From positions 1 to 32,232 of the forward strand of contig CACXEC010000053.1 in the NCBI GenBank assembly GCA_902766545.1: a DNA stretch of 32,232 nt, read 5' to 3'. The notes below the pieces were generated by a model. The model saw only the letters and a list, made by a program, of their open reading frames with translations. It was not told the DNA's origin and ran no database searches. The stretch's first letter is position 1; the number at the start of each line of letters is the position of its first letter. This DNA is from an uncultured Erysipelotrichaceae bacterium. GTDB taxonomy: Bacteria; Bacillota_I; Bacilli_A; RF39; UBA660. Positions 4,562 to 27,983 of this stretch are shown one piece after another. A program made the position numbers and the translations under genes.

Positions 4562-4590
4562 TTGACAATTAAAAAACTATTTTCTATAAT
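4562..4590 (+). promoter_or_regulatory. Consensus sigma-A promoter of the pilin genes
   Basis: TTGACA (4562-4567), 17-nt spacer, TATAAT (4585-4590). It lies 26 nt upstream of the pilin ATG at 4616. The ORF-track start at 4562 is actually this -35 box. Confidence 0.8.
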
Positions 4591-4615
4591 TATTTTAGAA
4601 AGTAGGGATAAAAAA

Positions 4616-5026: not shown

Positions 5027-5056
5027 AAATTATAAAACTTAGAAAAGGAAAGTAAA

Positions 5057-5485: not shown

Positions 5486-5512
5486 AACCAAAGTACAAAC
5501 TTTGGTTTTTTT
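5484..5512 (+). terminator. Rho-independent terminator after pilin paralog 2
   Basis: Perfect 11-bp stem aaaaccaaagt (5484-5494) / actttggtttt (5499-5509), 4-nt loop, T run. An extended -10 tgttataat follows and could serve nfo. Confidence 0.8.
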
Positions 5513-5537
5513 ATGTTATAATTTTTATGGTGGTAAT

Positions 5538-6422: not shown

Positions 6423-6471
6423 CTAATTGACATAATTGGCTTTTTTTAATAAACTTATAATAGGAGTTATT

Positions 6472-11786: not shown

Positions 11787-13229
11787 ATGAAATATGATTT
11801 AATTGTAATTGGCATGGGACCTAGTGCAGTGTTTTTAGCCTATGAACTAATACAAAAGAATAAAGCTAAAAATGTTTTATTAATTGATCAAGGTAAGAGT
11901 GTTGAAAACAGATATTGTCCAATGGAAAAAGCCGGAAAATGTTTAAAATGTAAACCATATTGTAATATAACATGTGGTTTTTCAGGTGCTGGTGCTTTTT
12001 CTGATGGTAAACTTAATTCATATCATTTATCATCAAGAGATAAAGATGGAAAAATATATTTAGGTGGTAATGGTGGAGGATATTTTAGAGAATATTACTC
12101 AGAAGATGAATTAAATGAATTATTAACTTATACCGATAATATTTATTTAAAATTTGGCGCTGATCCTAAGCTTAAAGGAACTGAACATATCGAAGAAATA
12201 AAGAAATTACAAGAAAAAGCATTCAAGAATAATTTAAACTTGGTATCTTTTCCAATTAGACATCTAGGAACGGAAAAAGCTCATATATTATATGGAGAAA
12301 TTGAAAAATACTTAAAAGAGCATAATATTAATATGATGTTTGAAACTGAAGTAAAAGATTTAATAATAAAAAATAATACTATCAAAGGCGTTAAAGTTCA
12401 TCATATTAAAGAAAATATAGATGAAGAACTATTAAGTGATAAAGTTGTTATTGCTGTTGGTAGAAAAGGAGCATCATGGCTTAGTGAAATGTGTGAAAAA
12501 CATAACATAGCTACCAAAATAGGTAGTGTTGATATTGGAATTCGTTATGAGCTTCCAAATAAAGTAATGGCAAAGATTAATGAATATATGTATGAAGGAA
12601 AGTTTATAGGAAGACCATACCCATATGGTGATAAGGTAAGAACATTCTGTCAAAATCCAAGTGTATTTGTATCCGCTGAAGTTTATGATAATGGACTTAC
12701 TTTAGTAAATGGTCACTCATATAAAGATCGTAAAAGTGAAAATACTAACTTAGCTATTTTAGTATCTCACAACTTTACTTATCCATTTGATAAACCAATT
12801 GAATATGGTGAAAATGTAGCTCAAAACTTAAATAGGTTAGGTGGAAATGCTATAATGGTTCAAAGACTTGGCGATATATATCGTGGAAGACGTACATGGG
12901 AAGAAGATTTAAAAAATAATTCTGTTCGTCCTACCTTAAAAGGTGCTGTAGCTGGAGATTTAACATATGGTTTAGGTTATCGTACTATGACCGATATTTT
13001 GCAGTTTATTAAAGATGTCGATAAAGTAGTAGAAGGTTTTGCTAATCCAGATAATTTATTATATGGACCTGAAATAAAATTTTATAGTAATGAAATTATT
13101 TTAGATAAAGACTTTATGACAAGTATAAAAGGATTATATTCTATTGGTGATGGTGGAGGCCTTACAACTGGACTTATGATGGCATCATGCTCAGGCGTCC
13201 AAATGGCTAGAATTCTATGCAAAAAGTAG
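11787..13229 (+). CDS. FAD-dependent oxidoreductase (COG2509-type uncharacterised dehydrogenase)
   Basis: 480 aa. N-terminal dinucleotide-binding motif YDLIVIGMGPSAVFLAYEL and C-terminal GDGGGLTTGLMMASCSG, typical of this family. An extended -10 tgatataat lies at 11760-11768. Confidence 0.75.
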   Translation: MKYDLIVIGMGPSAVFLAYELIQKNKAKNVLLIDQGKSVENRYCPMEKAGKCLKCKPYCNITCGFSGAGAFSDGKLNSYHLSSRDKDGKIYLGGNGGGYFREYYSEDELNELLTYTDNIYLKFGADPKLKGTEHIEEIKKLQEKAFKNNLNLVSFPIRHLGTEKAHILYGEIEKYLKEHNINMMFETEVKDLIIKNNTIKGVKVHHIKENIDEELLSDKVVIAVGRKGASWLSEMCEKHNIATKIGSVDIGIRYELPNKVMAKINEYMYEGKFIGRPYPYGDKVRTFCQNPSVFVSAEVYDNGLTLVNGHSYKDRKSENTNLAILVSHNFTYPFDKPIEYGENVAQNLNRLGGNAIMVQRLGDIYRGRRTWEEDLKNNSVRPTLKGAVAGDLTYGLGYRTMTDILQFIKDVDKVVEGFANPDNLLYGPEIKFYSNEIILDKDFMTSIKGLYSIGDGGGLTTGLMMASCSGVQMARILCKK

Positions 13230-13250
13230 TATGATAAACTACTTTTTTTG
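13221..13250 (+). terminator. Rho-independent terminator
   Basis: 10-bp stem aaaaagtagt (13221-13230, including the stop codon) / actacttttt (13238-13247), 7-nt loop, T run. Confidence 0.7.
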
Positions 13251-13252
13251 TG

Positions 13253-13281
13253 TTGAAAAAGAAGAGCATTTGATTTATAAT
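13253..13281 (+). promoter_or_regulatory. Sigma-A promoter of the Tad-like operon
   Basis: TTGAAA (13253-13258), 17-nt spacer, TATAAT (13276-13281). SD taggag then precedes the ATG at 13316. Confidence 0.7.
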
Positions 13282-13315
13282 TAAATAGAATAGATAAGTA
13301 TGTATAGGAGAATAT

Positions 13316-13663
13316 ATGAATAAGAAAGGGCAAGCTTTAGTTGAATTTATCATTATTATTCCAATAGTTGTTTTTATGATTCTTGCTATTATTGATTTCA
13401 TGATGATATTTAGTAATAAAAACAAATTGGAAAGTAAAATGAATGATGTTATCGTATTATATAAAAAAGATAAAACTTCAATGGATATAATTGATTATTT
13501 AAATAAAGATTTAAAGGGCGTAACTTATTCATCTAAAAGTGATAATAAATATACTTATCTTGAAATTAAAATGAATTATAGTTTTGTAACTCCGGGAATG
13601 GATAAGATTCTTGGTAAAAAATATGAGATTAAATGTGAAAGAGTGATTTTAAATGAACAGTAA
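13316..13663 (+). CDS. TadE-like pseudopilin
   Basis: 115 aa. N-terminus MNKKG|QALVEFIIIIPIVVFMILAIIDF matches the TadE-type signature G-x3-VEF plus a hydrophobic helix (Glu+5). First gene of the Tad operon. Confidence 0.75.
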   Translation: MNKKGQALVEFIIIIPIVVFMILAIIDFMMIFSNKNKLESKMNDVIVLYKKDKTSMDIIDYLNKDLKGVTYSSKSDNKYTYLEIKMNYSFVTPGMDKILGKKYEIKCERVILNEQ

Positions 13664-14039
13664 AGGTCAAAGTTCTTCAATATTTATCATAATTATTCCT
13701 ATTATTATTGTTGCTTTAGCGTTTATTTATGATAATGCTATGATGGTTGTAACAACTAATAGATATAAATCAGTTACTAAAGATATTATTAAAGAAGTAT
13801 TAGTAAATAGTTATGATGATAAAGAAACTATTGTTAAAGATTTATTTGAAAAAAATAAGTATGAAACAGAACAGTTATCAGTTGAATACGATGGTACTAA
13901 TTTAAAAGTATATAATATTCACTCTTATCCAAGCATCTTTGGTATTGTTTTTGGTGTCAAAAAGTATCGAGCAGAAGTATATTTATCTGGACACTTAGAG
14001 AATAACGAAGTTGTTATTGAAGAAGTAGAAGAGGATTAA
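13653..14039 (+). CDS. TadE/TadG-like pilus assembly protein
   Basis: 128 aa. MNSKGQSSSIFIIIIPIIIVALAFIYDNAMMV resembles the TadE/G-like N-terminal helix, but there is no Glu+5. Overlaps the upstream gene by 11 nt. Confidence 0.6.
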   Translation: MNSKGQSSSIFIIIIPIIIVALAFIYDNAMMVVTTNRYKSVTKDIIKEVLVNSYDDKETIVKDLFEKNKYETEQLSVEYDGTNLKVYNIHSYPSIFGIVFGVKKYRAEVYLSGHLENNEVVIEEVEED

Positions 14040-14040
14040 T

Positions 14041-14790
14041 ATGGCAAAGGGGAAAGTTGTTTGCATTTATGGTGCAAAAGGTGGTATTGGCAAAAGTACA
14101 TTTACATTAAATTTAGCTGGAGTTATATCTAATATAAAAAAGAAAGTACTTATTTTAGATTTTGACTTATCTAATGGAGCAATTGCTTGTTCTTTAAATT
14201 CAAATATTAATAAAACCATATTTAACTTTTGTGAAGACTATGCTAATAATCGCTTTAGTGATATGGAAAATTATATAAATAGTTACAATGAGAATATTGA
14301 TTTTATATCAAGCCCTAAAGATCCTAGACAAGCAAATAAAATTGATATAAAACTCTTAGATGTTTTAATTGACAAATGCGCATATAAATATGATTGTATT
14401 TTAATTGATACATCATATGTCTTAGATGAGGTAAATGTCTTTGCTTTAGATAAGAGTGATAATATTTTGTTTATGACTACTAATGATATAGTAGCGCTAA
14501 AGAATTTAAAAAACGTTTTAAATATAATGAATGATAATGATTTTAAAAATTATAAAATAATACTTAATAATAGTGTTTATCCTAGTAAAGATTACTTTTC
14601 TTTATTCGATCTTAAAAGTATTTTAAATAATAATATTGATTATATAATTAGTTCATCATTTTATTATAAAAAAATGGATAATTTAATTATTAATGGAGAA
14701 ATAGCCACTTTAAAGTATAATAATTTTAATGATTACAAGATATTTGAGCTTATTGCTAATGATGTTTTAAAGGAGGGTAAAGATGAGTAA
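14041..14790 (+). CDS. ParA/MinD-family ATPase, TadZ/CpaE-like (no receiver domain)
   Basis: 249 aa. Deviant Walker A GAKGGIGKST is present, and it sits immediately upstream of the CpaF-type ATPase, as TadZ/CpaE does. Confidence 0.75.
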   Translation: MAKGKVVCIYGAKGGIGKSTFTLNLAGVISNIKKKVLILDFDLSNGAIACSLNSNINKTIFNFCEDYANNRFSDMENYINSYNENIDFISSPKDPRQANKIDIKLLDVLIDKCAYKYDCILIDTSYVLDEVNVFALDKSDNILFMTTNDIVALKNLKNVLNIMNDNDFKNYKIILNNSVYPSKDYFSLFDLKSILNNNIDYIISSSFYYKKMDNLIINGEIATLKYNNFNDYKIFELIANDVLKEGKDE

Positions 14791-16102
14791 GTCACTAATT
14801 GAAGATTTTGATTTTAAAACTAAAAAATCTTCTGAAATTAAAAATGATTACGATGTTTTTCCTGATAAAAAACTATTAGATGAACTAAGAAAAAAGATTA
14901 TTGAGCATTTAATTGATCAAGAGCTTCCTGAAAATAAAGATTTAAATGAATTTATTAATGAAAATATTGATGAATGCTTAGAAGGTTATGATTTAACAAA
15001 TTTAGAACGTAGTCATATATTTAATTTAATAGATGATGAAATTAATGGGTATGGTCCCATTAGTGAACTATTAAATGATAGTAATATTACAGAAATAATG
15101 GTTAATGGGCCTAAAGATGTTTATGTAGAAATAGAAGGAAAACTAATTAAAGATAATTCGATTTCTTTTATTAATGATGAACACATTATTAGAACGATGC
15201 AAAGATTAATTCAGCCTCTTGGTCGTACAATAGATTCTTCTAACCCTATGGTTGATTCAAGACTTGCTGATGGTTCAAGAATTAATGCTGTAATACCTCC
15301 TCTTAGTGTTAAGGGGCCAGTTATTACAATTCGTAAGTTTAAAAGAAATATGACTAGTATTGATGATTTACTTAGAGTTGGTTCCCTAACTGCTGAAATG
15401 GCAACATTTTTAGAGGGCGCTGTAAAGGGTAAATTAAATATAATTGTTTGCGGAGGAACTGGTAGTGGTAAAACAACTCTATTAAATATTTTAAGTAGCT
15501 TTATAGGAAATGATGAACGTATTATTACTATTGAGGATGCTGCCGAATTAAAACTTGAACAAGAACATGTTATAAGTTTAGAAACAAGAACTGTAAATTA
15601 TAACAATGGTAGTGAAGTATCTGTACGTGACTTAGTAATTAATGCCCTTCGTATGAGACCCGATCGTATTGTTGTTGGAGAATGCCGTGGAAAAGAGGCT
15701 TTTGATATGCTTCAAGCTATGAACACTGGTCATGATGGATCTCTTACAACTCTTCATGCTAATGGACCGATGGATGCTTTAAATAGATTAGAAACAATGG
15801 TTTTAATGAGCGGTATTGATATTCCAATCATGGCAATTCGTGAATATATTGAAAATGCAATTGACTTAGTTATAAATATTCAAAGAATGCATGATGGAAA
15901 AAGAAAAATAGTAAGCATTAGTGAAGTAGTTGGTATTGATAATGGTATGATAAAACTATCACCAATATTTGAATTTGTTCAAAAAGGATTAACTTCATCT
16001 GGAGAAGAAGATGGAGAATATCAAAAATGTGCTAAAAAACCATTTATTTATGAAAGATTAAAATCAAGAGGAATAACTGAAATAGAAAAAATTTTTAAAT
16101 AA
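14783..16102 (+). CDS. tadA: CpaF/TadA-family type IV pilus (type IVc) secretion ATPase
   Basis: 439 aa. Walker A GGTGSGKTT, Walker B/Asp box PDRIVVGECRG, His box GHDGSLTTLHAN. N-terminal ITEIMVNGP is typical of VirB11/CpaF ATPases. Confidence 0.9.
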   Translation: MSKSLIEDFDFKTKKSSEIKNDYDVFPDKKLLDELRKKIIEHLIDQELPENKDLNEFINENIDECLEGYDLTNLERSHIFNLIDDEINGYGPISELLNDSNITEIMVNGPKDVYVEIEGKLIKDNSISFINDEHIIRTMQRLIQPLGRTIDSSNPMVDSRLADGSRINAVIPPLSVKGPVITIRKFKRNMTSIDDLLRVGSLTAEMATFLEGAVKGKLNIIVCGGTGSGKTTLLNILSSFIGNDERIITIEDAAELKLEQEHVISLETRTVNYNNGSEVSVRDLVINALRMRPDRIVVGECRGKEAFDMLQAMNTGHDGSLTTLHANGPMDALNRLETMVLMSGIDIPIMAIREYIENAIDLVINIQRMHDGKRKIVSISEVVGIDNGMIKLSPIFEFVQKGLTSSGEEDGEYQKCAKKPFIYERLKSRGITEIEKIFK

Positions 16103-16120
16103 TAACGAAAGGAGGTTTAT

Positions 16121-17098
16121 ATGAACAAAATTGCTTTAATTCAAATAACTATTATAATTATAATACTTATTTTGACACTTAGAGTTTTAAGATTATCTAA
16201 GACTTTAAAATATAGTGAAAGAATTGCAAAATATACTGTAAATAAAAATAAAAAAGAAAGCTTATCATTAGGAGATAAATTATTAAATGTTTATATAAAT
16301 TTCCAAAATTCTATTGTAAATATTTTACAAAAATCTGTATATTTTAAAAATAAAGCGATAAAGTATGAAAGATATAGTTATATAGATAGTCCCTTAAAAT
16401 TAATTGCAAATAAATTTTTAATATCATTTTCTTTAGGAGTAGTATATATATTATCATCGTTTATTAATTTAAAATTTGATATTTTTATATTATTACTAGT
16501 AATGGTTATAGGGTATTTTATTTATAATATATACTTAATAATAGATGAAAAGAAACGTAATAAAAATATTCAAAATGATTTATCAAAGGCTATTATTATT
16601 ATGAATAATGCTTTTAAATCAGGATATAATATAACTCAAGCAATTGATTTTGTATCAAAAGATTTAAATGGCCCAATTAGTGAAGAATTTAAAAAAATCA
16701 GTAGTGATTTAAAATACGGGTTAGAGATTAAAGACGTTTTTGCCCGTTTCTATAGTAGGGTTAGAATTGAAGATGCTTTAATATTAACTAGTAGTTTAAG
16801 TTTGTTAAATATTACGGGAGGAAATTTAATTGGCATTTTTAGTTCTATTGAAAAGTCATTTACAAACCGTAAACGTTTAAGAGATGAACTAAATGCCATG
16901 ACTAGTAGTAGTAAGTTAGTATTTTATATATTATTAATTATGCCATTTATTATCATTTCAATGTTATTATTTTTAAATCCTGAGTATTACAGTCCAATAG
17001 TTCATAATCCCCTTGGAGTATTAATTTGCATATTAGCAACGATTCTTTATATCTCATATATTGCTATTATTAGAAAGATTCTGAAGGTGGATGCATGA
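16121..17098 (+). CDS. tadB: Type II secretion system F-domain platform protein, TadB-like
   Basis: 325 aa polytopic membrane protein with a cytoplasmic T2SSF-like segment (IIMNNAFKSGYNITQAIDFVSKDLNGPISEEFKKISSDLKYG). Its position after tadA fits TadB. Confidence 0.75.
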   Translation: MNKIALIQITIIIIILILTLRVLRLSKTLKYSERIAKYTVNKNKKESLSLGDKLLNVYINFQNSIVNILQKSVYFKNKAIKYERYSYIDSPLKLIANKFLISFSLGVVYILSSFINLKFDIFILLLVMVIGYFIYNIYLIIDEKKRNKNIQNDLSKAIIIMNNAFKSGYNITQAIDFVSKDLNGPISEEFKKISSDLKYGLEIKDVFARFYSRVRIEDALILTSSLSLLNITGGNLIGIFSSIEKSFTNRKRLRDELNAMTSSSKLVFYILLIMPFIIISMLLFLNPEYYSPIVHNPLGVLICILATILYISYIAIIRKILKVDA

Positions 17099-17793
17099 AA
17101 AACAGTTTTGTAGAAAAGATTTATACTAAAAAAAGTATTGAAAGAATTAAGAAAAAGAATCGTTTACTAGGAATTAAGTATAATTATGATATTAACTCAT
17201 TAATGACAAGTCATTTATTTATAAGTATATTTATTTTTATAATAATCTCTATTTTAAGTAGAAATATAATTATATCTATAATTATAACTTTAATATATTT
17301 TTGTTTTATGGAATATCTATTTTTTGATTTTAGATTAAGAAAAAGAGCTCATCTTTTAGAAAAAGAAGCGTTTTTTTACTTTCAAATATTATGTTTAACT
17401 TTAGAATCTGGAAGTAATTTAAAAGGAGCCATTGAAATAACTTGTAATAATTTAGATAATACTTTAAGTAATGAATTTAAGAAATGTATTGAGGATGTAA
17501 ATCTGGGAAAAAGTTTAAATGAAACTTTAGAAGATTTATCTCTTAGAATTCCAAGTGATGTAGTTAATAATATTATTTTAAATTTATTAGAATCTAATAT
17601 CTATGGAAATAATATGATTTCATCTTTAAATAATCAGTTATTATACTTAAATGATAAATTATTACTTGAAGCTAAAGCTAAAATAAATAAAATGCCAGTA
17701 AAAATAAGTATTGTTAGTGTTTTAATATTTGTACCATTAATAATGCTTATTATATTAGGCCCAATTATAATAACACTTATTAACAACAGTTAA
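17095..17793 (+). CDS. tadC: Type II secretion system F-domain platform protein, TadC-like
   Basis: 232 aa. T2SSF-like segment (FQILCLTLESGSNLKGAIEITCNNLDNTLSNEFKKCIEDVNLGKSLNETLEDL) flanked by TM helices. ATGA overlap with tadB. Confidence 0.7.
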   Translation: MKNSFVEKIYTKKSIERIKKKNRLLGIKYNYDINSLMTSHLFISIFIFIIISILSRNIIISIIITLIYFCFMEYLFFDFRLRKRAHLLEKEAFFYFQILCLTLESGSNLKGAIEITCNNLDNTLSNEFKKCIEDVNLGKSLNETLEDLSLRIPSDVVNNIILNLLESNIYGNNMISSLNNQLLYLNDKLLLEAKAKINKMPVKISIVSVLIFVPLIMLIILGPIIITLINNS

Positions 17794-17814
17794 GGTATAT
17801 TTAATACCTTTTTT
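17792..17814 (+). terminator. Short rho-independent terminator after tadC
   Basis: 7-bp stem aaggtat (17792-17798) / atacctt (17804-17810), 5-nt loop, TTTT. It is weak enough that read-through is plausible. Confidence 0.55.
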
Positions 17815-17815
17815 C

Positions 17816-17844
17816 TTGTATTTTTTTTTAATTTATAGTACTAT
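17816..17844 (+). promoter_or_regulatory. Candidate promoter of the giant sigma-like gene pair
   Basis: TTGTAT (17816-17821), 17-nt spacer containing a T9 run (17821-17829), TACTAT (17839-17844). SD-like aagggaa lies about 10 nt before the ATG at 17870. Confidence 0.4.
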
Positions 17845-17869
17845 ATCTATCTAAAGGGAATGGGTTTGT

Positions 17870-20800
17870 ATGGTTGATATTAATAAAAAATATTTAACAG
17901 ATGAAGATTTTGAAAGTTTATTTACTGAGTATACTAATGGCTCAAAAAATGCTTTTAAATTAATAGTTCAAAAATCTTATGTATTAATAGATGATATTCT
18001 TAAAAGTTATGTAAGTAATGAAAAATATGACTATGAATTATTACATAAGATTTGTGAATTTGCTTTATTTGATGCAATTAAAACATATGATCCTCATAAA
18101 AGCTATAAAAATCATATAAAAATGTATATTTTATATAAAATAAAATCTTTTTTGGAAAAGAATCCTAATCCATCTATTAGTAAAGATAATACCTTAATAT
18201 TTGAAAATATTAATAAAGAATTAAAACTAAATATTACTTCAAAGGACTATTTAGACATTAGAGCAATTATTGAGCTTCAATCATCAAGAGTTAAAGTAAT
18301 TATCAAGCTTAGATATGGTTATAATGGAAATTGTTTGCCTCCAGAAGAAATAGCAAGAAAGTGCGGCTATAATCTTGATGCTGTCATCAACGCTATTAAT
18401 AATTTTAATAATCTACTTACTAAAAGATATTTAAAAGTAGAATATAAAAGTGAAGAACATAAAGAACTACCAAAAGAAAAAATATCTTTAAAAGATTCAA
18501 TATATGAATACTTCAGCGAATATACTAAAGAGGAAGTAAGATATGCGGTTGGTATTCTTCCCCTTAATTATAGAAATATTATATATTTAAAATATGGTAA
18601 TTTATTATCGGAAAATAACAATATTGATACTGATAATAATAATATAATTTATAATGAAATTATTGGTATAATTGAAAGTATTTTAATAAATTTTAGAAAA
18701 AATAAAAATAAGAAAAGTCTTTATGAATATTTCTTAGAATACTCAAAAGAAGAAGTTAAATCTGCAGTTATGCATTTACCTAAAAAGGAGAGTCGTTTAA
18801 TATACAAACGTTTTGGATATGATTTAACAAGTTTTACTTTTATTTCATCAGATGACATTGAGAAAATAAATAGTACTATAATTCCTCATATAAGATCATT
18901 ATTGAAAGATAAAAAATCATTACATCAAAAAAATATATTTGATTATTTTGCAGATTATTCTGAAGAGCAAGTTATACAAGCTATTAGTAAATTGGGAGAC
19001 AAGCAAAAAAGAATTATTTTTAGTAGATTTGGCGAAGGCTTAGATAGTAGTAATATAATTGATAGTTATGATTTAAAATTATTAGAAGAAATCATAATTC
19101 CAAGAATAAATACTATATTAAGTGAAAAATCATCATTATTTGATATAAATAATATTACTAAAGATAAATTAAAAAGTGCTTTAAAAAAATTATCCAATGA
19201 AGAACAAGTCCTTTTTTATAAGAAATTTATTAAAAAAGAATCATTAACTAGAAGTGAGTTAATTAAATTATATATTGAAATAATACCTAAACTAAAATCA
19301 TTAATTAATTCTAAAACGAACACTTGTGTTAATAAAAGATTTAAACCAATATATGATTATTTTGATGGGTTTACTATAGAAGAAGTGAATTCTGCAATTA
19401 GTAAGTTAGATGAAAAATATAAGAAAATATTGCATGCAAGATATGGTAATACTTTGGATGAATACCATCAAATACCTAGTAAAGATCGAACTTTAATTTA
19501 TAATGTAATAATTCCAAGACTAAGAAACGTTTTAAAAGGTAAAGATGTTAAAAATGACAGAAGAAAGTTAACTTTACTAGAACATTTTGATGGCTATACT
19601 TTAGAAGAAATTAAAGAAGCTATATCTAAGTTAAATGATAAAGATAAAGAAATAATATTTAAAGTATATGGAGAGTCTTTAGACGAATATCATTATATAT
19701 CTAAAGAAAATAAAAACGCATTATATACTATTAAACGCAAAATACAAAGAATTTTAAATAGTAAAAAACATAATAAATCTTTATTTGAACGAATAACCGA
19801 TTATGACGAAAGTCAAATCAGAAAAGCCATTTCTAATCTTGCGCCAAAACATCAAGAAGTGCTATATAAAAAATATGGCCGTGCTTTAAATGAATATTAT
19901 GATTTAACCAAAGAAGAAAATCAATATTTAACTTCAGTTGTTATTCCAAGACTTAAAAAAATCTTAAAAGGAAAAGCATTATTATCAACAAAGATAACCG
20001 AATTATTATCAGCTTCAACAGAAGAAATAAATCAAATAATTACTAAATTACCTTTTGAACATCAAACTATTGTTTATAAAAAGTATGGTAGGTTTCTAAA
20101 CGAATATAATAAAATAGATAAAGAAGAAAGCACAATATTTTACGGAACTATATTACCTAAAATGAAGAGAATGTTAAGTAAAAGAACTATTATTAAATAT
20201 ATTGGTGACTATTTTGATGGCTATAATATCGATGAAATAAAAAATGCTATTTCTAAACTTATTGCATCGAAACAAGAAATTATTTATAAAAAATTTGGAA
20301 TTAATTTAAATGAATCAAATCAGATACCTAGTAGTGAGCATACTATATTTAAAAGAGCAATAAAAGATATAAGAAATGTTTTAGAAGGGATAGATATTAA
20401 TCAAAGGTTTCAAACATTAATTAAAAGATTAGATGGTTATTCTTATGAAGATATAACAAAAGCGATTGGTTTTTTAGAACCAGAAAAAAGGGCTTTGTTT
20501 TATAAAAAATATGGAACATATTTAGATGAATATCATGTGATAACTAAGAAGGAAAATAGCATCATTGAAAATGCTATTGTTAGCTTAAAAAATCTATTAT
20601 CATGTAATAAAAAATCCATAAATATTTCATTAAGAGAATATTTTAAAGATTATTCTTTAGAAGAAATAAAAAATGTAATATCTAAATTAAAAACTAAAGA
20701 GCAAGAATTGTTATATTTAAAGTTTGGCGAAAACTTAGATGAATGTAATTTAATAAATAGTGAAAAAATAAAATCACTTGAAAAATTAGTTATCATAGTA

Positions 20801-22693
20801 GGAAAAAAACTAAGTGGGGAATTATCTGTTAAAGATAGAAAAATCAAATATAAAACCATATTTGACCACTTTGAAGGTTATCAAGCAGAAGATATTATAA
20901 ATGTAATAAACAGTTTAAATCCAGATGAACAAGAAATAATTTATAAAAAGTATGGATGCACATTAAATGATTATAATACTCTTAATAGAGAAGAAACAAT
21001 AAAACTATATTCAATTATCTCAAAAATGAAAAATATATTAAAACGCAAACAAGGAAAATGCGGCCGAAAATCACAAACAGTATATGAATTTTTAGGCACT
21101 GATTCAAAAGAAACAATATTATCTTTAGTCAAAAATTTAACTGATAAACAACAAAATGTTTTCTTTAAAAAATATGGCCATAATCTAGATGAAAATAATA
21201 CTTTGAATTCTAGCGAAAACTCTTTATTTTATGGAATTGTTATACCCAATATGAAGAGACTTGTTAATAAAGAACCAGAAAAACACCGTGGACCTAAGAA
21301 TAAGCATTTTAGTGATTATTTTAAAGAATATACAAAAGAAGAATTATTAAGTGCAATTGCATTATTAAGCATAGAAGAGCAAGAAATCATTTTCAAACGA
21401 TTTGGTAAAAATTTAGATGAAATAAATACTATTAATAAAAATGAAACAATAAAGTTACATAATACAATCATTTCACATTTAAGAAAATTACTAAGTGGAG
21501 AAAAAGTACAAACTAGAAAAAGAAAAACATTTATTTCATATTTTGAAGGATACACAATAGATGAAATAATAAATGCAATTAGTGTTTTAGATGAAAAATA
21601 CCAAGAATTAATATATAAAAAGTATGGACACACTTTAGATGAGTATAATAAAGTTTCTAATAATGAAAATTGTATTATTAGTCAAAATATTATACCTAAA
21701 TTAAAATTAGTATTAAATGGTGAATTCCCTGTTAGGAAAATGAAAAAGATTTGGTATTATTTTGAAGAATATGCCAAAGAAGAAGTAATTAATGCCATAA
21801 GTAAATTATCAAACGAGGATCAAGAACTTATTCACAAAGTATTTGGTTTAGATTTAAATGAAATAAATAATTATACTGATACAGAAAAAACTAAAATAAC
21901 TAGGAGTTTATTTCCAAAAATAAAAAGATTATTATTAAATAATGACCATGTTAATAGTAATTTTATACCATTCTTTGATTATTTTAACGGATATAGTAAA
22001 GAAGAAGTATTATTGGCAATAAAAAGTTTAAGTAAAAAACACAAAGATATATTATTTAAAAGATATGGTCAAAACTTAATGGAACAAAATACAGCAAGTC
22101 ATAATGAAAAATCTATAATTAGACAGACAATTATTCCTAAGTTAAAAAAAGTGCTAAATAGAAAGATAATTAGACCAAGTAGTTTTTATGAACTTATTGG
22201 TTTATCTAGAGAAGAATTTTTAAGAAAGATAGAATTCTTATCGCCTGAAGAAAGAGAATCTTTGTATAAATATTTTGGCTATGATTTAGATAAAATAGAA
22301 TTCATTTCTAAAGATGAAGATTTAAAGACTGAAGTCGAAAATATAATTATTCCTAAAATTAGAAACATGGATATAAGTAAAGAAGTATTTAATTTTGATG
22401 CTTTAAGTCCAATTATTGAAAGTATCTTAAAAGAAGTTCCTAACGTAACAAAACTAGAAATAATCATTTTTATTTTAAGAATAGGTTTAGAAGCTAATGG
22501 ACCATATGATATGGATATGATAAGTGAGTATTTTAAATTATCACCATATGATATTAATCGTATAACTCTTAAAGTACTAAATGAAATAAGTGTTAATTTA
22601 GAAACTATTTATGATTATATTGCGAAAGGATTATCAAAAACAGAAGAAGTAAAACCATTAATGATTAATCCTATAGAAGGAGATAATAAATAA
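17870..22693 (+). CDS. Giant sigma-70-like protein 1. Degenerate region 2 plus region 4 head, 18 tandem ~70-aa region-4-like repeats, terminal HTH-like module.
   Basis: 1607-aa uninterrupted ORF. Aa 1-100 follow the sigma region 2 layout (NAFKLIVQKSYVLIDDILKSY...ELLHKICEFALFDAIKTYDP), but the WWIRQ signature is replaced by ILYKI. Aa 139-185 look like region 4 (RVKVIIKLRYGYNGNCLPPEEIARKCGYNLDAVINAINN). Repeats start at aa 211. No TM or signal peptide. Confidence 0.8.
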   Translation: MVDINKKYLTDEDFESLFTEYTNGSKNAFKLIVQKSYVLIDDILKSYVSNEKYDYELLHKICEFALFDAIKTYDPHKSYKNHIKMYILYKIKSFLEKNPNPSISKDNTLIFENINKELKLNITSKDYLDIRAIIELQSSRVKVIIKLRYGYNGNCLPPEEIARKCGYNLDAVINAINNFNNLLTKRYLKVEYKSEEHKELPKEKISLKDSIYEYFSEYTKEEVRYAVGILPLNYRNIIYLKYGNLLSENNNIDTDNNNIIYNEIIGIIESILINFRKNKNKKSLYEYFLEYSKEEVKSAVMHLPKKESRLIYKRFGYDLTSFTFISSDDIEKINSTIIPHIRSLLKDKKSLHQKNIFDYFADYSEEQVIQAISKLGDKQKRIIFSRFGEGLDSSNIIDSYDLKLLEEIIIPRINTILSEKSSLFDINNITKDKLKSALKKLSNEEQVLFYKKFIKKESLTRSELIKLYIEIIPKLKSLINSKTNTCVNKRFKPIYDYFDGFTIEEVNSAISKLDEKYKKILHARYGNTLDEYHQIPSKDRTLIYNVIIPRLRNVLKGKDVKNDRRKLTLLEHFDGYTLEEIKEAISKLNDKDKEIIFKVYGESLDEYHYISKENKNALYTIKRKIQRILNSKKHNKSLFERITDYDESQIRKAISNLAPKHQEVLYKKYGRALNEYYDLTKEENQYLTSVVIPRLKKILKGKALLSTKITELLSASTEEINQIITKLPFEHQTIVYKKYGRFLNEYNKIDKEESTIFYGTILPKMKRMLSKRTIIKYIGDYFDGYNIDEIKNAISKLIASKQEIIYKKFGINLNESNQIPSSEHTIFKRAIKDIRNVLEGIDINQRFQTLIKRLDGYSYEDITKAIGFLEPEKRALFYKKYGTYLDEYHVITKKENSIIENAIVSLKNLLSCNKKSINISLREYFKDYSLEEIKNVISKLKTKEQELLYLKFGENLDECNLINSEKIKSLEKLVIIVGKKLSGELSVKDRKIKYKTIFDHFEGYQAEDIINVINSLNPDEQEIIYKKYGCTLNDYNTLNREETIKLYSIISKMKNILKRKQGKCGRKSQTVYEFLGTDSKETILSLVKNLTDKQQNVFFKKYGHNLDENNTLNSSENSLFYGIVIPNMKRLVNKEPEKHRGPKNKHFSDYFKEYTKEELLSAIALLSIEEQEIIFKRFGKNLDEINTINKNETIKLHNTIISHLRKLLSGEKVQTRKRKTFISYFEGYTIDEIINAISVLDEKYQELIYKKYGHTLDEYNKVSNNENCIISQNIIPKLKLVLNGEFPVRKMKKIWYYFEEYAKEEVINAISKLSNEDQELIHKVFGLDLNEINNYTDTEKTKITRSLFPKIKRLLLNNDHVNSNFIPFFDYFNGYSKEEVLLAIKSLSKKHKDILFKRYGQNLMEQNTASHNEKSIIRQTIIPKLKKVLNRKIIRPSSFYELIGLSREEFLRKIEFLSPEERESLYKYFGYDLDKIEFISKDEDLKTEVENIIIPKIRNMDISKEVFNFDALSPIIESILKEVPNVTKLEIIIFILRIGLEANGPYDMDMISEYFKLSPYDINRITLKVLNEISVNLETIYDYIAKGLSKTEEVKPLMINPIEGDNK
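18500..22372 (+). repeat. In-frame tandem array of 18 coding repeats (~210-225 nt / ~70-75 aa each)
   Basis: Units start at IYEYFSEYTKEEV, LYEYFLEYSKEEV, IFDYFADYSEEQV ... FYELIGLSREEF. Each contains L-x4/5-[QKE]-x-hh-x-K-[KR]-[YF]-G-x-x-L-[DN]-E and ...IIP[KR]hKxhL. The repeats are diverged at the DNA level. Confidence 0.85.
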
Positions 22694-25600
22694 TGGATAA
22701 ATTAAAGATATTAAACTATATTAATAATAATTTAAAAAATAGTTCAGAGTTTAAAATAGTTTTTGATAATATTAGAAAATTATGTAAGTTTTTAGAAGAT
22801 ATTGATCCAGATGATATTCCATCACTTCTTGATGAATCAGAAGTTTTATATAACTATTTAAAAGTTTTGATTAAATTAGGAACTGGAAGAAATAAAAAAA
22901 CTCTAATTAAAGAGTATAGTGATAATGAAGTATTAAATACTTTAATAGATGCATATTTTGCAAAAGAAAACCAGTCAATAAATGCATGGCTTGAAAATGT
23001 ACAAGGAAAACTTTTAACGGATAGAGAAATAGAAGAACTTAGCATTAAGGCTAAAGCTGGAGATGTAAATGCTAGAAATACCATAATTGAAGCTAATTTA
23101 GGATTAATAAGATCTATTGCTGGTGTTTATAGTCAAAAAACTACTAAATTATCTTTTGATGAACTATTCCAAGAAGGCTTTTTTGGTTTAGAAAAAGCCG
23201 TAATGAAATATGACCCTAGTAAAAGTAAGTTTTCAACTTATGCTATTTGGTGGATAAGACAAGCAATAACAAGGTATATTTATGATAATGATCGTACAGT
23301 TAGAATTCCAGTTCATATGTTGGAAAAAATTAATAAGATGTTAAGAGTAAGGTCTAAACTTATTGCCGAATTAAACAGAGAAGTAACGTCTGAAGAAATA
23401 GCGAGTGCTATGGGTAAAGAGCCTGAAGAAATAGAATTTATGTTAGAGATAAGTACTCGTACAACTAGTTTAGATCAAAAAATAGATGATGAATCAGATG
23501 CTTCAAGCTTAAGTGATTTTATTCCAGATGATACTACATCTTACTTTGCAGATGATATTATAGATAAAGCCCATGGCTCTTTAGCTTGGGATATTGCTAA
23601 AAAAGTGCTAAGTAAAAGAGAGTATCAAGTACTATGTTATCGCTTTGGCAAATTTGATGGAAACGTATATACACTTGAAGAAACAGCTAATTTAATGGGT
23701 GGAAACAATTCTGTTACCAGAGAAAGAATTCGTCAGATAGAAGCAAAGGCCATACGTAAATTAAGTAGACCAAATATTAAAAATATACTTGATGAAAACA
23801 ATATGGAGAAAGTAAAAAATAATCCATTAACAATGGAAGAACCGCCTAAAGCAAAAGTTGCTATCGATTCAAGAACACTATTTGAAAGATTACCCGAGTT
23901 TACTGAAGAAGAGATTATTACGGGTTTAATGGAATTATCAGAGTATCAAAGAGGTATTTTATATCAAAAGTTTGGCTCTAATTTAAGAGAAGTTAATATA
24001 GTATCTAATACTAATGAAAATTATATTAAAAGTATTTTAAGAAAACTATCCGAATTATTAAGTGATATAAAATATAATCATGGTAAATCTTCTATTATCG
24101 ACTATTTTGTGGGTTATTCATTGGTAAGTATTAAATATGCTATAACATTTCTTACTTCTAAAGAAAGAGCGTTAATATATCAAAGATTTGGTAAGAACTT
24201 AGATGAATTCAATGAAGTAAATAATTTTTGCCGGGTAAAATTACAAACAATTATAATACCTAAAATGCTTGAGAAGCTTAATAAAAAAGTTAGTCCGGTT
24301 GTTGAAAAAAAATTAGAGATAATTTTTAGGGATGTTTCTAAAGATAAAATCATTAAAGCAATAAATTTTCTTTCTAATAATGAACAAAGAATAATATACG
24401 AAAGATTTGGTAAGAACTTAGATGAATTAAACAATATTAATGGTGGGGATATATTTGAACTATATGCAAATATTATTCCAAGATTAAAACAAATTTTAAA
24501 TGATGCATATTTAATGCAAGATGGTTACTCAATTCTATCTCATTTTGAGGGATATGGGGAAGAAGATGTTATTAATGCCTGCAATGAATTATTAAAAAAA
24601 GAAAAAGAAGCTTTACATGAAAAATTTGGTAATGATTTAAAACAATTAATGATTGTAAATGAAGAAACTTATAACAAAATATATAATATGATAATCCCCA
24701 AAATTCAAAAGATTTTAAATGGTGAAATAAAACATAATGGCAGATACTTTAAGCCAATAATGTCTTACTTTGAAGGCCATACAAAAGAAGAAGTGCTAGA
24801 GGCTATAGGTAGACTTGAGGAAAAATATCAAATTATTATTTATAAAAGATATGGAACAAACTTAGATATAAGTTATAATAGATTAAAAAAAGATTTAGAT
24901 GAAAGTTATGAGTTAACTACAAGCGAAATAAGAACGCTTCGTAATACGATTATTCCTAAAATTCAAAAGATTTTAAATGGTGAAAAAATTTATGCTGGTA
25001 ATCGTTTTAAGCCATTTGTGTCATATTTTGAAGGATATACCAAAGAAGAAATACTTGCAGCTATTGGCAAGCTTGATTCTAAGTGTCAAGATATAATATT
25101 TAGAAGATATGGACGCACTTTAGATGAGCAAAATGAAATACCTAAAAAGGAAATGGAAAAGATTTATAGTTCAATAATTCTAAGTATTAATAAAGCATTA
25201 AAAGGAGAAAAAACTCATATTGGACGTTTTAAACCTTTAATGTCATATTTTGAAGAATATACTAAAGAGGAATTATTATTAGCTATAAGTAATCTTGAAC
25301 AATCAGACCAAGATTTAATTTATAAAAGATATGGGCAAGATTTAGAAGAACAAAATACTGTATCTCAAGAAGATTTACGATATATACGAAGAATTATTAT
25401 TCCAAAATTAGAAGAATTAATTTGCCATAAACCTGTTAAAAGCAAGAATCTATTTGAATTATTAAATAAAAGTAAGGAAGAAGCATTAAGGATTATTGAA
25501 ATTATGCTAACAAAAGAAGAAAGAGAAGATTTATATAAATACTATGGTTATGATCTAGAAGAACCTAAAGAAGTTCCGTTAGATGAAGATTTTAGAAAAT

Positions 25601-25965
25601 ATGTGGAAGAAAAAATAATTCCTAAACTTAATCAAGATAATAATTTAGAATTACCACCAATAGGTTTAAGAAAAGCGCTTGAAATAGCTGATATGTTAGC
25701 TCAGCTAAATCTTTTAATGGGCTTTAAAAAAGAAATTATTATTGTGTTATCTCTAAGATTAGGTATTAATCAGGAAAGAACTTTTACAGTAAAAGAAGTT
25801 TCTGATATATTAGGAATTAGTGAAGAAGAGGTAAATTCTATTACTCATATAGTACTAACAAAATATCAAAAAATATTTAATGTTGTTTTTGATAATATCA
25901 TGCAACTACTTGGAAATAAAAAAGCTTCTAATATATCTACTGATTTATCAAATAATCCTTTCTAA
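22693..25965 (+). CDS. Giant sigma factor 2. Complete SigA-like (group 1/2) sigma-70 core fused to 8 tandem region-4-like repeats and a terminal HTH-like module.
   Basis: 1090 aa. Aa ~96-360 align almost residue by residue with B. subtilis SigA. Shared blocks are [75 protein letters not shown], and region 4 [14 protein letters not shown]...[34 protein letters not shown]. The start overlaps the upstream stop (TAATG). Confidence 0.85.
   Translation: [1090 protein letters not shown]
23878..25638 (+). repeat. In-frame tandem array of 8 coding repeats (~70-86 aa each)
   Basis: Units start at [91 protein letters not shown] and [12 protein letters not shown]. They are the same family as the array in the upstream gene. 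Confidence 0.85.
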
Positions 25966-25983
25966 TTGCTGAAAAATTTATTA

Positions 25984-26012
25984 TTGTAAAAGTTATTAAG
26001 ATGTGATAAATT
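25984..26012 (+). promoter_or_regulatory. Candidate promoter for the downstream structured RNA
   Basis: TTGTAA (25984-25989), 17-nt spacer with TG at 26004-26005, TAAATT (26007-26012). The predicted start near 26019 coincides with the left arm of the inverted repeat. Confidence 0.35.
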
Positions 26013-26017
26013 ATTGT

Positions 26018-26198
26018 TGTAAGAAACTAGATTATGTGCAAATTAGAAGTTATCATATTGCCAATTTTAGATGATACTTATTAAGAAAATTTGCGAAATG
26101 TTTTAAAAATGAAAAAGAGAAGTAAATGTTATTTTACACTTCTAGTTTCTTACACTTATGTTAAATAAATAAAACCATATTTAAAATGGTTTTATTTT
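26018..26198 (+). ncRNA. Candidate ~180-nt structured RNA (unclassified), or alternatively a structured 3' UTR of the sigma gene pair
   Basis: A 14-bp perfect inverted repeat tgtaagaaactaga (26018-26031) / tctagtttcttaca (26141-26154) encloses a 57-nt hairpin at 26038-26094. That hairpin has a 7-bp stem gcaaatt/aatttgc and a 9-bp stem aag(t)tatcat/atgatactt. An A-rich segment follows, then an intrinsic terminator. No convincing ORF. Confidence 0.35.
26171..26198 (+). terminator. Rho-independent terminator
   Basis: 8-bp stem aaaaccat (26171-26178) / atggtttt (26186-26193), 7-nt loop, followed by aTTTT. Confidence 0.65.
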
Positions 26199-26199
26199 G

Positions 26200-26208
26200 T
26201 GGTAAAAT
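26200..26208 (+). promoter_or_regulatory. Extended -10 element upstream of the FtsW-family gene
   Basis: tggtaaaat matches TGnTAAAAT. It lies 19 nt upstream of the ATG at 26227 (SD gtaggtg). Confidence 0.4.
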
Positions 26209-26226
26209 ATTAATAGTAGGTGAAAT

Positions 26227-27381
26227 ATGAAAAGCACATTAAGTAAAATGGACAAAGCGTTATTTGTTTTTATGCTATTATATAGTGTTTTAGGACTTAT
26301 AATGATATTTAGTGCTTCATCTATAACTGCTGTTTTATATAACCGAGTAGAAGAGTCATATTTTTTTAAAAAGCAATTTATTTTCGTAGTTTTAATGTGG
26401 GCGATAGGTCTTGGGTTTATTATTAACTTTCCAACATCTAAATATAAAAAATTAGCACCCCTTGGTATGGTTTTAATTACTGCTGCGCTATTTCTTCTTA
26501 TTCCATATGGAAAAGTTACTAATAGTGCAAGGAGTTGGTATAATTTAGGATTTTTTAATTTTCAGCCTAGTGAATTTGTTAAATCGATTATGATAGTATT
26601 TTTAGCAGTATATTTTGAAAGAATAATTGGCGAAAAAGATTATAAAATATCTAAAATAATGTTCCCATTTATTATAATATTGATCGCCTGTGGTTTAATT
26701 GCTTATCAGCCTGATTTAGGAACAGCTGTAATTGTTGCTGGTATAGCCGGATTAATATTTTTAGTTCTACCAATTAATACATTAACTATGAAAAAAATGA
26801 AAATAGGAGGAATAATAACTGCAATAGTTGTTTTTGCATTTATATTTATTGGTGGGAATACCTTAAATGCTGAACAATCTAGTCGTTTAACTTATAAGTC
26901 ACCATGTACTAGATATACCCAAAAAACTGGATATCAAGTATGTAATGGCTTTATAGCAATTAGTAATGGTGGATTATTTGGAGTTGGATTAGGTAACTCT
27001 ACTCAAAAATACTTATATTTACCGGAAGCTCATACTGACTTTATTTTTCCAATTATTGTAGAAGAATTAGGCGCAATAATAGGTTCAATTATAATTATAG
27101 GATTTGTCTGGTTATTATTTAGGCTTTTAAGTATTGCTAAAACTGCCAGTACCATCAGAGGATCTATAATTGCATATGGGACATTTTGTTATATATTGCT
27201 TCATTTATTAATTAATTTTATGGGAATTCTGGCATTAATACCCTTAACCGGAGTTCCAGTCCCATTTCTATCATATGGTGGTTCATTTTATATAAATCTT
27301 GCATTTCTTTTATTCTTAAATCAAAGAGTAGTAATAGAAAAAAATAGTAATAAAACAAAAGAATTATTAAGGAGTATATAA
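26227..27381 (+). CDS. FtsW/RodA/SpoVE-family peptidoglycan glycosyltransferase (SEDS protein)
   Basis: 384 aa polytopic membrane protein. SEDS hallmarks are present: LGLIMIFSASS, FQPSEFVKS, QPDLGTA, LPEAHTDFIF, PLTGVPVPFLSYGGS. Confidence 0.85.
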   Translation: MKSTLSKMDKALFVFMLLYSVLGLIMIFSASSITAVLYNRVEESYFFKKQFIFVVLMWAIGLGFIINFPTSKYKKLAPLGMVLITAALFLLIPYGKVTNSARSWYNLGFFNFQPSEFVKSIMIVFLAVYFERIIGEKDYKISKIMFPFIIILIACGLIAYQPDLGTAVIVAGIAGLIFLVLPINTLTMKKMKIGGIITAIVVFAFIFIGGNTLNAEQSSRLTYKSPCTRYTQKTGYQVCNGFIAISNGGLFGVGLGNSTQKYLYLPEAHTDFIFPIIVEELGAIIGSIIIIGFVWLLFRLLSIAKTASTIRGSIIAYGTFCYILLHLLINFMGILALIPLTGVPVPFLSYGGSFYINLAFLLFLNQRVVIEKNSNKTKELLRSI

Positions 27382-27983
27382 TGAATAATAAAGGAATGAG
27401 TATAGTTGAAATAATAGTATCTGTTGCCCTTGTATCAATTGTATTAATATTTATGATTAATTTACTAATAACAGTTAAAAGTAGTAGTGATACTTCACAA
27501 AATAAGTCTGATGCTCTAATTAATCGTGCATTAATAGTTAAAGAAATAGAAAAAGATTTTGTGGACTATGAGCTTAGTGGAGTATATAGTTGTAATACTA
27601 ATTCAATAACTGGTGGAGTTAGAGCAATTTTACCAAGTACAGCGAAAAACATTTATTGTCTAAGATTTACATTTAATAATATTACAGACTCAGGCTATTT
27701 AATTCAATATGTTGACAATAATAAAAGTATAATTGGGTACAAAAGAGGTAGCAATCAAATAGTTAGAGAATCAGCTTATCCAATGAATCCATCTGATAAT
27801 AATTCTAGAGGAAGCATTGAATCCTCCTGCTCAAGTAATAGCTATGAGAACTGTGCTATAAAAATAGTAATGCCAATTAAAGATGAAGAAAATAATAACT
27901 ATAGCATTAGACTGACATACATATATAAAAGAAACAATTTCACATATTCAAATATTAATAGTAATGGTTTTGTATCATATTAA
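27381..27983 (+). CDS. Prepilin-type N-terminal domain protein (minor pseudopilin-like)
   Basis: 200 aa. MNNKG|MSIVEIIVSVALVSIVLIFMINLLI has Gly-1, Glu+5 and a hydrophobic helix. The start overlaps the FtsW-family stop (TAATG). The C-terminal domain is unassignable and contains 5 Cys. Confidence 0.7.
   Translation: MNNKGMSIVEIIVSVALVSIVLIFMINLLITVKSSSDTSQNKSDALINRALIVKEIEKDFVDYELSGVYSCNTNSITGGVRAILPSTAKNIYCLRFTFNNITDSGYLIQYVDNNKSIIGYKRGSNQIVRESAYPMNPSDNNSRGSIESSCSSNSYENCAIKIVMPIKDEENNNYSIRLTYIYKRNNFTYSNINSNGFVSY

Follow-up and report, generated by a model that had tools for sequence, protein, structure and literature searches.

As a rule, a bacterial sigma factor is controlled by a separate anti-sigma protein or, in some of the extracytoplasmic function (ECF) groups, by a fused sensor domain. 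The ECF proteins are group 4 sigmas that consist of sigma-2 and sigma-4 domains only, and in ECF41, ECF42 and others a fused C-terminal extension, made of SnoaL-like or TPR domains, is thought to tune activity in place of a separate anti-sigma. We know of no described group 2 sigma with a C-terminal array derived from region 4 and a second helix-turn-helix (HTH), or with a paired pseudo-sigma, and our full-text literature searches found none. Here, we analyse a protein of this build, which we call B, encoded on contig CACXEC010000053.1 (GenBank assembly GCA_902766545.1), a 32,232-nucleotide stretch of DNA from an uncultured gut member of the Bacilli that we refer to as the window.

B combines a sigma-70 core resembling that of the primary sigma SigA with a 725-amino acid (aa) tail of repeats and a terminal HTH, and its gene directly follows that of a degenerate paralog, A, at the end of a Tad/Flp-type pilus operon (Table 1). 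The sigma-70 family itself is known; what is new is the undescribed repeat array, apparently derived from sigma region 4, together with the pseudo-sigma partner and the link to a pilus operon. Taking the evidence as a whole, we think it reasonably probable that B is a paralog of the primary sigma that has an accessory role and evolves fast, one of a family of repeat-tailed sigmas, with a near-housekeeping promoter preference and a regulatory role for its tail.

Anatomy of B and its upstream partner

Pfam places B in the sigma-70 family, with Sigma70_r2 (aa 132-202, 58 bits), r3 (aa 211-280, 62 bits) and r4 (aa 305-357, 60 bits) each matching at E ~1e-16 and above the gathering cut-offs. The closest solved structure is that of B. 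subtilis SigA (7ckq_F, E 3e-53 over aa 82-362), and SigA and SigmaS chains match about equally (E 1e-14 to 1e-11) in Foldseek searches with an AlphaFold (AF2) model of the whole protein (mean predicted local distance difference test (pLDDT) score 71). The original prediction had described the interval 22978-23772 (B aa 96-360) as a fully intact SigA-like core with signatures close to identical to those of SigA. At the level of contact motifs this holds: the four motifs it quoted are all present (aa 180-196, 201-215, 261-280 and 341-357), the recognition helix of region 4.2 differs from that of SigA by one I/L exchange, as it had said, and B retains the contact residues for the -10, extended -10 and -35 elements (regions 2.3/2.4, 3.0 and 4.2). 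Overall, it does not. Against SigA residues 88-362, B is 43.9% identical (278 residues, 8 gaps), compared with 92% for S. aureus SigA and 80% for C. difficile SigA over the same stretch, and it stays below the curated RpoD equivalog cut-offs of NCBIfam (TIGR02393, RpoD_Cterm, 224.7 bits versus 354; NF006666, Firmicute RpoD, 221.4 versus 572; NF004208, 225.4 versus 555), with the RpoS model scoring almost the same (220.5 bits).

Region 1.1 (PF03979), a mark of group 1, is detected by Pfam nowhere in B, and aa 1-96 match neither Sigma70_r1_1 nor r1_2 even at E values up to 1; the domain that stands there is helical in the AF2 model (pLDDT 76-89) and forms a conserved N-terminal block common to family members. 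Region 1.2 aligns only weakly and is not detected by Pfam r1_2. Within region 2.2, B reads QEGFFGL instead of QEGNxGL and has lost the conserved Asn, and four residues, GGNN, are inserted in region 4.2. The insertion is visible as a gap in the phmmer alignment and as a longer loop at aa 336-342 in the AF2 model (pLDDT ~64), and among the 17 family and canonical sequences compared it is unique to the protein of this species. Recognition of canonical -35/-10 promoters by B is plausible because the contact residues of regions 2.4, 3.0 and 4.2 are retained, and less so for the -35 element in view of the insertion.

The units of the tail were delimited with an iterated profile, which finds 8 in B and 18 in A. 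In the AF2 model, each unit of B forms four helices (pLDDT 70-88), separated by low-confidence linkers and with no confident packing between units (predicted template modelling score, pTM, 0.25); the last unit is degenerate and bears the signature LYKYYGYDL. No Pfam or NCBIfam model covers the 66-aa repeat, and the idea that it is a known solved domain was rejected, as a profile search of PDB sequences gave no significant match. When the repeat profile is aligned to a profile of sigma region 4, hhalign returns a probability of 62% (E 7e-5) with the first HTH helix skipped, and the repeat HMM weakly matches region 4 of canonical RpoDs. Foldseek searches with the tail model have only sigma chains as their top matches, none of them significant and nothing below E 0.06. 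One local match is to domain 4 of S. aureus SigA (4g6d_A, probability 1.0, TM 0.71 over 65 columns, E 0.4); since the aligned query range was not reported, we infer that it falls on the C-terminal domain of B rather than on a repeat. Beyond hhalign, the profile, the summed Pfam matches of A and Foldseek tie the tail units to sigma region 4, from which they appear to be remotely derived. The tail ends, in A and B alike, in a fuller region-4-like HTH, which in B scores just below the Pfam Sigma70_r4 cut-off (23.1 bits, E 5e-5; cut-off 24.1). At the DNA level there are no tandem repeats in either gene, which indicates that the arrays are old, and a recent expansion of the repeats was rejected on the same grounds.

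Protein A has lost the aromatic melting residues of its N-terminal domain, and the N-termini of A-like proteins align with the RpoD core profile at an hhalign probability of 96% (E 3.4e-9). Summed over the whole protein, Pfam Sigma70_r4_2 (48 bits) and Sigma70_r4 (40 bits) exceed their gathering cut-offs, with no single stretch significant. Proteins P0141, P0142, P0146, P0150, P0161, P0165 and P0244 make up an A-like subfamily. Between the window and a second strain (L003), A carries 37 nonsynonymous differences, most of them in aa 150-390 (window 18320-19040), which suggests a recombined or hypervariable segment. The stop codon of A (TAA) and the ATG of B overlap by one base (TAATG), and the two may be translationally coupled. 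Downstream of B, an A+T-rich hairpin is a weak candidate for a terminator, which the terminator scan missed because it has too few G-C pairs.

Table 1 Features of the B locus and the adjoining pilus operon, in window coordinates
Feature	Positions	Strand	Details
Best promoter-like site	13253..13281	+	TTGAAA-17-TATAAT, just 5' of the Tad operon; 11/12 consensus match only
Tad/Flp-type pilus operon	13316..17793	+	NCBIfam matches
TadE-like	13316-13663	+	
Uncharacterised open reading frame (ORF)	13653-14039	+	Second in the Tad operon
CpaE/TadZ-like ATPase	14041-14790	+	
CpaF/TadA ATPase	14783-16102	+	
TadB	16121-17098	+	
TadC	17095-17793	+	
Protein A	17870..22693	+	1607 aa; degenerate sigma paralog directly 5' of B
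A, N-terminal part	17870-18484		aa 1-205; sigma-2-like domain and HTH, without melting and -10 residues
A, repeats	18497-22369		aa 210-1500; 18 copies of the 66-aa repeat
A, C-terminal domain	22370-22690		aa 1501-1607; region-4-like
Shine-Dalgarno of B	22676..22684	+	GAAGGAGAT; strong (sequence reading)
Protein B ORF	22693..25965	+	1090 aa
B, N-terminal domain	22693..22977	+	aa 1-95; family-specific, helical, in the place of sigma region 1.1
B, sigma-70 core	22978..23787	+	aa 96-365; regions 1.2-4.2
Sigma-2 in B core	23086-23298	+	
Sigma-3 in B core	23323-23532	+	
Sigma-4 in B core	23605-23763	+	
GGNN insertion	23698..23709	+	aa 336-339; in the turn of the region 4.2 HTH
B, core-repeat linker	23788..23874	+	aa 366-394; low confidence (pLDDT 30-46)
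B, repeats	23875..25635	+	aa 395-981; eight 66-aa four-helix repeats, period ~72 aa
B, C-terminal HTH domain	25636..25962	+	aa 982-1090; region-4-like
A+T-rich hairpin	26171..26198	+	AAAACCAT-ATTTAA-ATGGTTTT, then ATTTTG; 3' of B (sequence reading)

The sigma-tail family and its genomic settings

We define the sigma-tail family by tandem 66-aa four-helix units, usually placed between a sigma core and a region-4-like HTH, an arrangement that B displays. Searched against 1.84 billion representatives, the repeat profile matches at least 917 clusters (50% identity), including 90 with E values no higher than 1e-30. Among the best 149 of the 917 clusters, 49 have a near-complete sigma-70 core, mostly N-terminal, about 15 have a sigma-2-like domain only, and the remainder consist of repeats alone or are fragments. 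No protein of the family carries a name in the databases searched, and full-text literature searches found no description of proteins of this type. Scores against an RpoD-core profile range across the family from 410 bits (P0008/P0139) to 185, with B at 248 and true RpoDs at 408-434, and the P0008/P0139 core passes RpoD_Cterm (388 bits versus 354). Region 1.1 was not detected in the family members listed, whereas most canonical RpoD matches carry PF03979. Within the P0007 cluster (P0132-P0138), alleles more than 90% identical measure 1382 and 1210 aa, a difference of two repeat units (9 versus 7 repeats), so that repeat copy number varies within a species-level cluster.

In the 185,579 species genomes of GTDB, no family member was found by exact words or by the terminal-repeat signature, and the signature LY[KAT]Y[YF]G[YF]DL had no match in GTDB genomes, JGI metagenomes or IMG/VR; an exact 8-mer match in GTDB belonged to an unrelated Doudnabacteria sigma and was discarded. 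An exact look-up of the window protein gave no recorded match. A degenerate DNA pattern gave mostly chance matches, with L172 and L268 the sole real members among the matches listed. Searches with the P0139 core reached Lachnospiraceae-type SigA at 77-78% identity, and its origin by gene conversion from a resident sigA was rejected, as no near-identical canonical sigma was found in the database. The top matches of that search (P0289-P0294) were set aside as misassembled: these Lachnospiraceae-type SigA proteins contain internal duplications of 30-100 residues, probably assembly artefacts, that inflate HMMER scores.

The window is chromosomal DNA of about 25% G+C that encodes ParC, Nfo, PBP2B, L33, EF-P, an FtsW/RodA-type protein, SpoIIP, a YlbD-type coat protein, several prepilins and tRNA-Arg. 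Its ParC is 86% identical to that of two Erysipelotrichaceae-labelled metagenome-assembled genomes (MAGs; RUG12877 and RUG11246), 76-82% to Hadza 'uncultured Bacilli' / 'Tenericutes UMGS' MAGs and 65% to Firmicutes bacterium CAG:582. These would be RFN20/RF39-like lineages. The gene order is the same in the window and in L003, namely a promoter-like site, tadE, an uncharacterised gene, cpaE-like, cpaF/tadA, tadB, tadC, A and B, and the identical genes of L003 match Pfam TadE, CbiA/ParA, T2SSE and, twice, T2SSF. In our reading of the sequence, a hairpin and T-run at ~13221-13250 precede the promoter-like site.

The link to pilus genes recurs. In two other lineages (L002 and L086), a sigma-tail gene stands directly after a complete Flp/Tad operon, the module lying between obg and ruvAB. 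The family is also tied to a different type of pilus locus in L290 (3949-12870): here a tandem of sigma-tail genes, encoding 913 and 884 aa, lies ahead of genes for a SpaA-type pilin (918 aa) and a sortase. The pairing of A with B recurs in L004, where the C-terminus of an A-like protein lies 5' of a B ortholog and the pair is kept at 33-40% identity. Elsewhere, the neighbours of sigma-tail genes are RNase J and rpsU; sigF and spoVA; another sigma and KilA-N; or a small region-4-like protein. In L087 (14146-14943) and L289 (3823-4680), a protein of 265-285 aa overlaps the 3' end of the sigma-tail gene; these two proteins are 26% identical to each other, have a region-4-like C-terminus (…LKYGY…YDLEEISKILSIS…) and may represent a conserved small partner.

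Several other features of the window touch on pili or promoters. The Tad operon has no obvious flp pilin gene 5' of tadE, in which it differs from L002 and L086. Apart from this operon, five scattered prepilin-type ORFs with an N-terminal methylation motif lie at 4562-7727 (around nfo) and 27381-27983 (after ftsW). The original prediction pointed to several canonical promoters in the window, of which the one it gave, at 4562-4590, is indeed a perfect TTGACA-17-TATAAT, and also the only one; such a match has a chance expectation of 0.20 and occurs at least once in 19 of 100 shuffles of the window, and looser promoter-like sites in 12900-26400 are not above chance (120 versus 113.6 ± 9.1 in shuffles). 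The perfect site ends 27 nucleotides 5' of the ATG at 4617, which opens a ComGC-like prepilin (MKNKKGFTLVELLAV), so that the listed TTG start at 4562 is probably wrong. For two ORFs, at 130-1341 (403 aa) and 9964-10836 on the reverse strand (290 aa), neither Pfam nor NCBIfam nor PADLOC gave a match; the former has a high content of Gly, Asn, Thr and Tyr and is possibly the terminal part of a surface protein.

Accessory or primary: conservation and evolution of B

Two options had been put forward for B, either the primary sigma of the organism carrying a repeat tail or a SigA paralog modulated by it. The first, in which B is the sole primary sigma and has gained a 725-aa C-terminal extension, draws on the retained -10, extended -10 and -35 contact residues, on a length of aa 1-365 close to that of SigA, on SigA and RpoD being the closest PDB and NCBIfam matches, and on a relative, P0139, that has a fully canonical core at the same Tad-linked position; nor was a second sigA recovered from the host genome, of which the contig was the part read. 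We nevertheless hold it to be very improbable, as the missing region 1.1, the 43.9% identity to SigA and the scores below the RpoD cut-offs are joined by gene context, distribution and rate of evolution, which together favour the second option.

As for context, the genes directly 5' of B are tadC and then A, which bears out the earlier remark that B lies outside the classical dnaG-rpoD order. A dnaG gene lies 5' of rpoD in 64 of 80 canonical loci (for example, in the order dnaG-sigA-trmK), which were unrelated and fetched at random among the matches listed from the GTDB genome scan, and in none of 11 loci of the sigma-tail family.

A vertically inherited primary sigma should equal or exceed ParC in conservation, which makes the divergence of the B core count against a primary role. 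In a database of 5.8 billion proteins, which samples this clade densely, the window ParC has relatives at 99, 89, 87, 86, 85, 83 and 82% identity, and the clusters that reach 82% or more number at least 120. Relatives of B fall from 99% within the species to 33% when the whole protein is compared and to 39.7% for the core alone, and RpoDs unrelated to B reach 48-49% on the core; in sister species whose ParC is 82-89% identical, nothing is closer to the B core than about 40-49%. The nearest of these (ParC 88.6%) shares synteny with the window from parC to efp at 76-87% nucleotide identity, and this ends right after efp (window 11716, L292 18614), before the block of a FAD protein, Tad genes, A and B; its locus (L292) contains no Tad genes, repeats or sigma core. 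A clean 14-kb insertion between efp and ftsW was rejected, since the FtsW-like gene of the sister is only 31% identical, and the difference is a synteny break rather than a simple indel. Both flanks of the parC-efp block are therefore variable, since 5' of parC the sister has genes that are not in the window, namely those for a reverse transcriptase (RVT_1), ORF6N and RhuM and a fragment of MutS_I. B looks dispensable, given that sister species lack it and that synteny breaks ahead of its module.

Sigma-tail genes also lack the vertical conservation of housekeeping genes where synteny is kept. Between the syntenic orthologs of L002 and L086, the sigma part is 42% identical, whereas Obg, RuvA and CpaF are 81%, 86% and 86% identical. 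In a neighbour-joining (NJ) tree, for which no support values were calculated, the canonical sigmas, drawn from many phyla, cluster tightly on short branches, whereas the family cores lie on long ones, B grouping with P0002, P0004 and P0196. From this fast-evolving, accessory behaviour, B would not be the main sigma of the cell, and we consider it very probable that it is not the primary (housekeeping) one. Having more than one SigA-like protein has a precedent in the cultured, spore-forming gut relative Turicibacter sanguinis, which has three sigA paralogs, one of them the true ortholog (PMC13492147). In the clade of the window, four genomes bear an additional SigA-like gene, without a tail, beside parC.

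Within the species, the two strains differ in B by 3 synonymous and 10 nonsynonymous changes, compared with 5 and 0 in CpaF and 6 and 1 in FtsW, all of them small numbers. An excess of nonsynonymous differences speaks against a primary sigma and, as a sign of relaxed constraint, could be read together with the patchy distribution of the family as marking a decaying or unexpressed relic whose sigma similarity is residual. That reading is barely credible to us. The ORFs of A and B run uninterrupted for 1607 and 1090 codons at 25% G+C, where chance stop codons are frequent; B has a strong ribosome-binding site and a start that overlaps the stop of A; other, independent samples contain eight further full-length alleles that are at least 99% identical, of which one sits on a 190-kb contig where the gene order is unchanged; another species retains the A-B pair; and the family spans 917 clusters. 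Across the nine B alleles, only one site varies in sigma-2 and one in sigma-4, and the count of variable sites per 100 aa is 1.8 for the C-terminal domain versus 5.8 for the repeats. With sigma-2 and sigma-4 constrained, long ORFs open and the A-B pair persistent, B is most likely a working sigma, its DNA-reading parts under constraint and likewise the terminal module that it shares with A.

Several points weigh against our overall reading of B as an accessory sigma with a regulatory tail. Its co-existence with a primary sigma in the same genome is presumed. The clade has other very divergent SigA-like genes, so that divergence alone is a weaker argument here than in model organisms. Four loci (L020, L021, L023 and L036; ParC 96-98.5% identical among the four) each have a tail-less SigA-like gene about 1 kb 5' of parC (positions 1-910). 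The P0008/P0139 core is as canonical as that of a true SigA, making a primary role possible for some family members. A pilus link is present in only four of nine independent contexts, those of L087, L172, L268, L289 and L291 being different. The homology of the repeats to region 4 is, at a probability of 62%, modest; their net charge of -4 over 587 aa, which is neutral, disfavours DNA binding by the array; and the GGNN insertion in the HTH turn may impair -35 recognition.

The tail-less SigA-like proteins just mentioned are mutually 38-48% identical (85% between L020 and L023), and the position 5' of parC looks like a hypervariable sigma-paralog locus. In the window, this position holds the unrelated 403-aa ORF, which was rejected as a sigma because it has no family match.

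Proposed role and comparison with known systems

The anatomy of B, its family, the genomic linkage and the accessory pattern of its evolution are shown by the data; how B engages polymerase, which promoters it prefers, what its tail does and which genes it serves we infer along the following lines. B would bind core RNA polymerase through regions 2 and 4 and would read promoters near the -35/-10 consensus, a near-housekeeping preference. Its flexible, beads-on-a-string tail and terminal HTH would add DNA or protein contacts that restrict when and where B acts, with pilus and adhesion genes as the most plausible targets; this role for the tail is tentative, and we give it somewhat less than even credence. 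Because A has the terminal module of B and has lost the DNA-melting residues, it would probably serve as a competitor or partner through that shared module.

The main rival, which we judge unlikely, holds by analogy that A and B are no longer initiation factors and have become RNA-polymerase-binding or sigma-4-mimicking proteins, with the array as a multivalent decoy or scaffold that would, for example, titrate proteins targeting sigma region 4 (phage anti-sigma proteins, activators) or tether polymerase. The repeats are indeed the most variable part of B within the species, with conserved positions mostly in the hydrophobic core and variable surfaces, and such a role would also suit their changing copy number among alleles, the fast evolution of the family, the retention of A in tandem in two species after the loss of its melting residues, and the HTH-turn insertion of B; the domain in the local Foldseek match 4g6d was, moreover, crystallised with phage G1 ORF67. 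Against this stand the conservation of sigma-2 and sigma-4, which are the best conserved parts of B within the species and have intact DNA-contact residues, as fits a working sigma, and the lack of any family member in IMG/VR or of defence indications in the neighbourhood. Membership in a defence system was rejected, as the one such match is a generic sigma similarity to MzaA, and analogy is the sole basis of the decoy proposal.

Returning to B as a working accessory sigma, the boldest extension, which we regard as rather doubtful, would make the sigma-tail proteins a distinct class of sigmas, in which a multivalent array of region-4-derived modules, carried by the sigma itself, would together with the terminal HTH regulate or target it from within. 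The array might act by self-competition at the beta-flap, by binding reiterated upstream DNA or by recruitment to a partner shared with A, and loci for surface appendages (Tad pili, sortase pili) would thereby come with a sigma of near-housekeeping specificity of their own.

What makes the family of interest is a primary-like sigma fused to up to a dozen-plus copies of a module that seems to derive from its own promoter-binding domain, and a pair of sigma-tail gene and degenerate copy that repeatedly ends pilus operons in gut Bacilli not yet cultured. Should the tail determine where a sigma of housekeeping specificity acts, this would be a new regulatory principle for bacterial transcription, a mode in which RNA polymerase is partitioned with no change of promoter specificity, and it would offer a way of addressing how abundant gut organisms adhere and express pili. 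Since annotation pipelines are likely to label such genes 'RpoD', the very probable non-primary status of B also matters in practice.

Compared with known systems, B resembles MzaA of the MZA anti-phage system in being a long protein with a group-1-like sigma domain. In MzaA, however, that domain is C-terminal, and B has no Mza partner genes nearby; the MzaA models match its sigma part only (NCBIfam, 201 bits versus a cut-off of 800, profile positions 471-712; PADLOC, 104.5 bits), with the repeats outside the model. With the group 1 sigmas, B. subtilis SigA and E. coli RpoD, B shares regions 1.2, 2, 3 and 4 in the same order, the promoter-contact residues and the predicted fold. It differs from them in its sequence identity and scores, in having no region 1.1, in the HTH-turn insertion and the tail, and in having neither dnaG adjacency nor conservation in sister species.

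By architecture, B is group-2-like, since regions 1.2-4.2 can be assigned in its sequence with no region 1.1. Such a primary-like core is also that of RpoS, mycobacterial SigB, cyanobacterial SigB-E and the extra sigAs of Turicibacter sanguinis, and B further resembles this group in that RpoS/SigB models score it nearly as well as RpoD models do, in that SigmaS structures match it as SigA does, and in its accessory behaviour; unlike RpoS-type sigmas, it evolves much faster. With ECF41 and ECF42, B shares a covalently attached C-terminal extension. Unlike these group 4 proteins, to which it matches at the superfamily level only (TIGR02937), it possesses regions 1.2 and 3, and its extension is built of sigma-4-like units.

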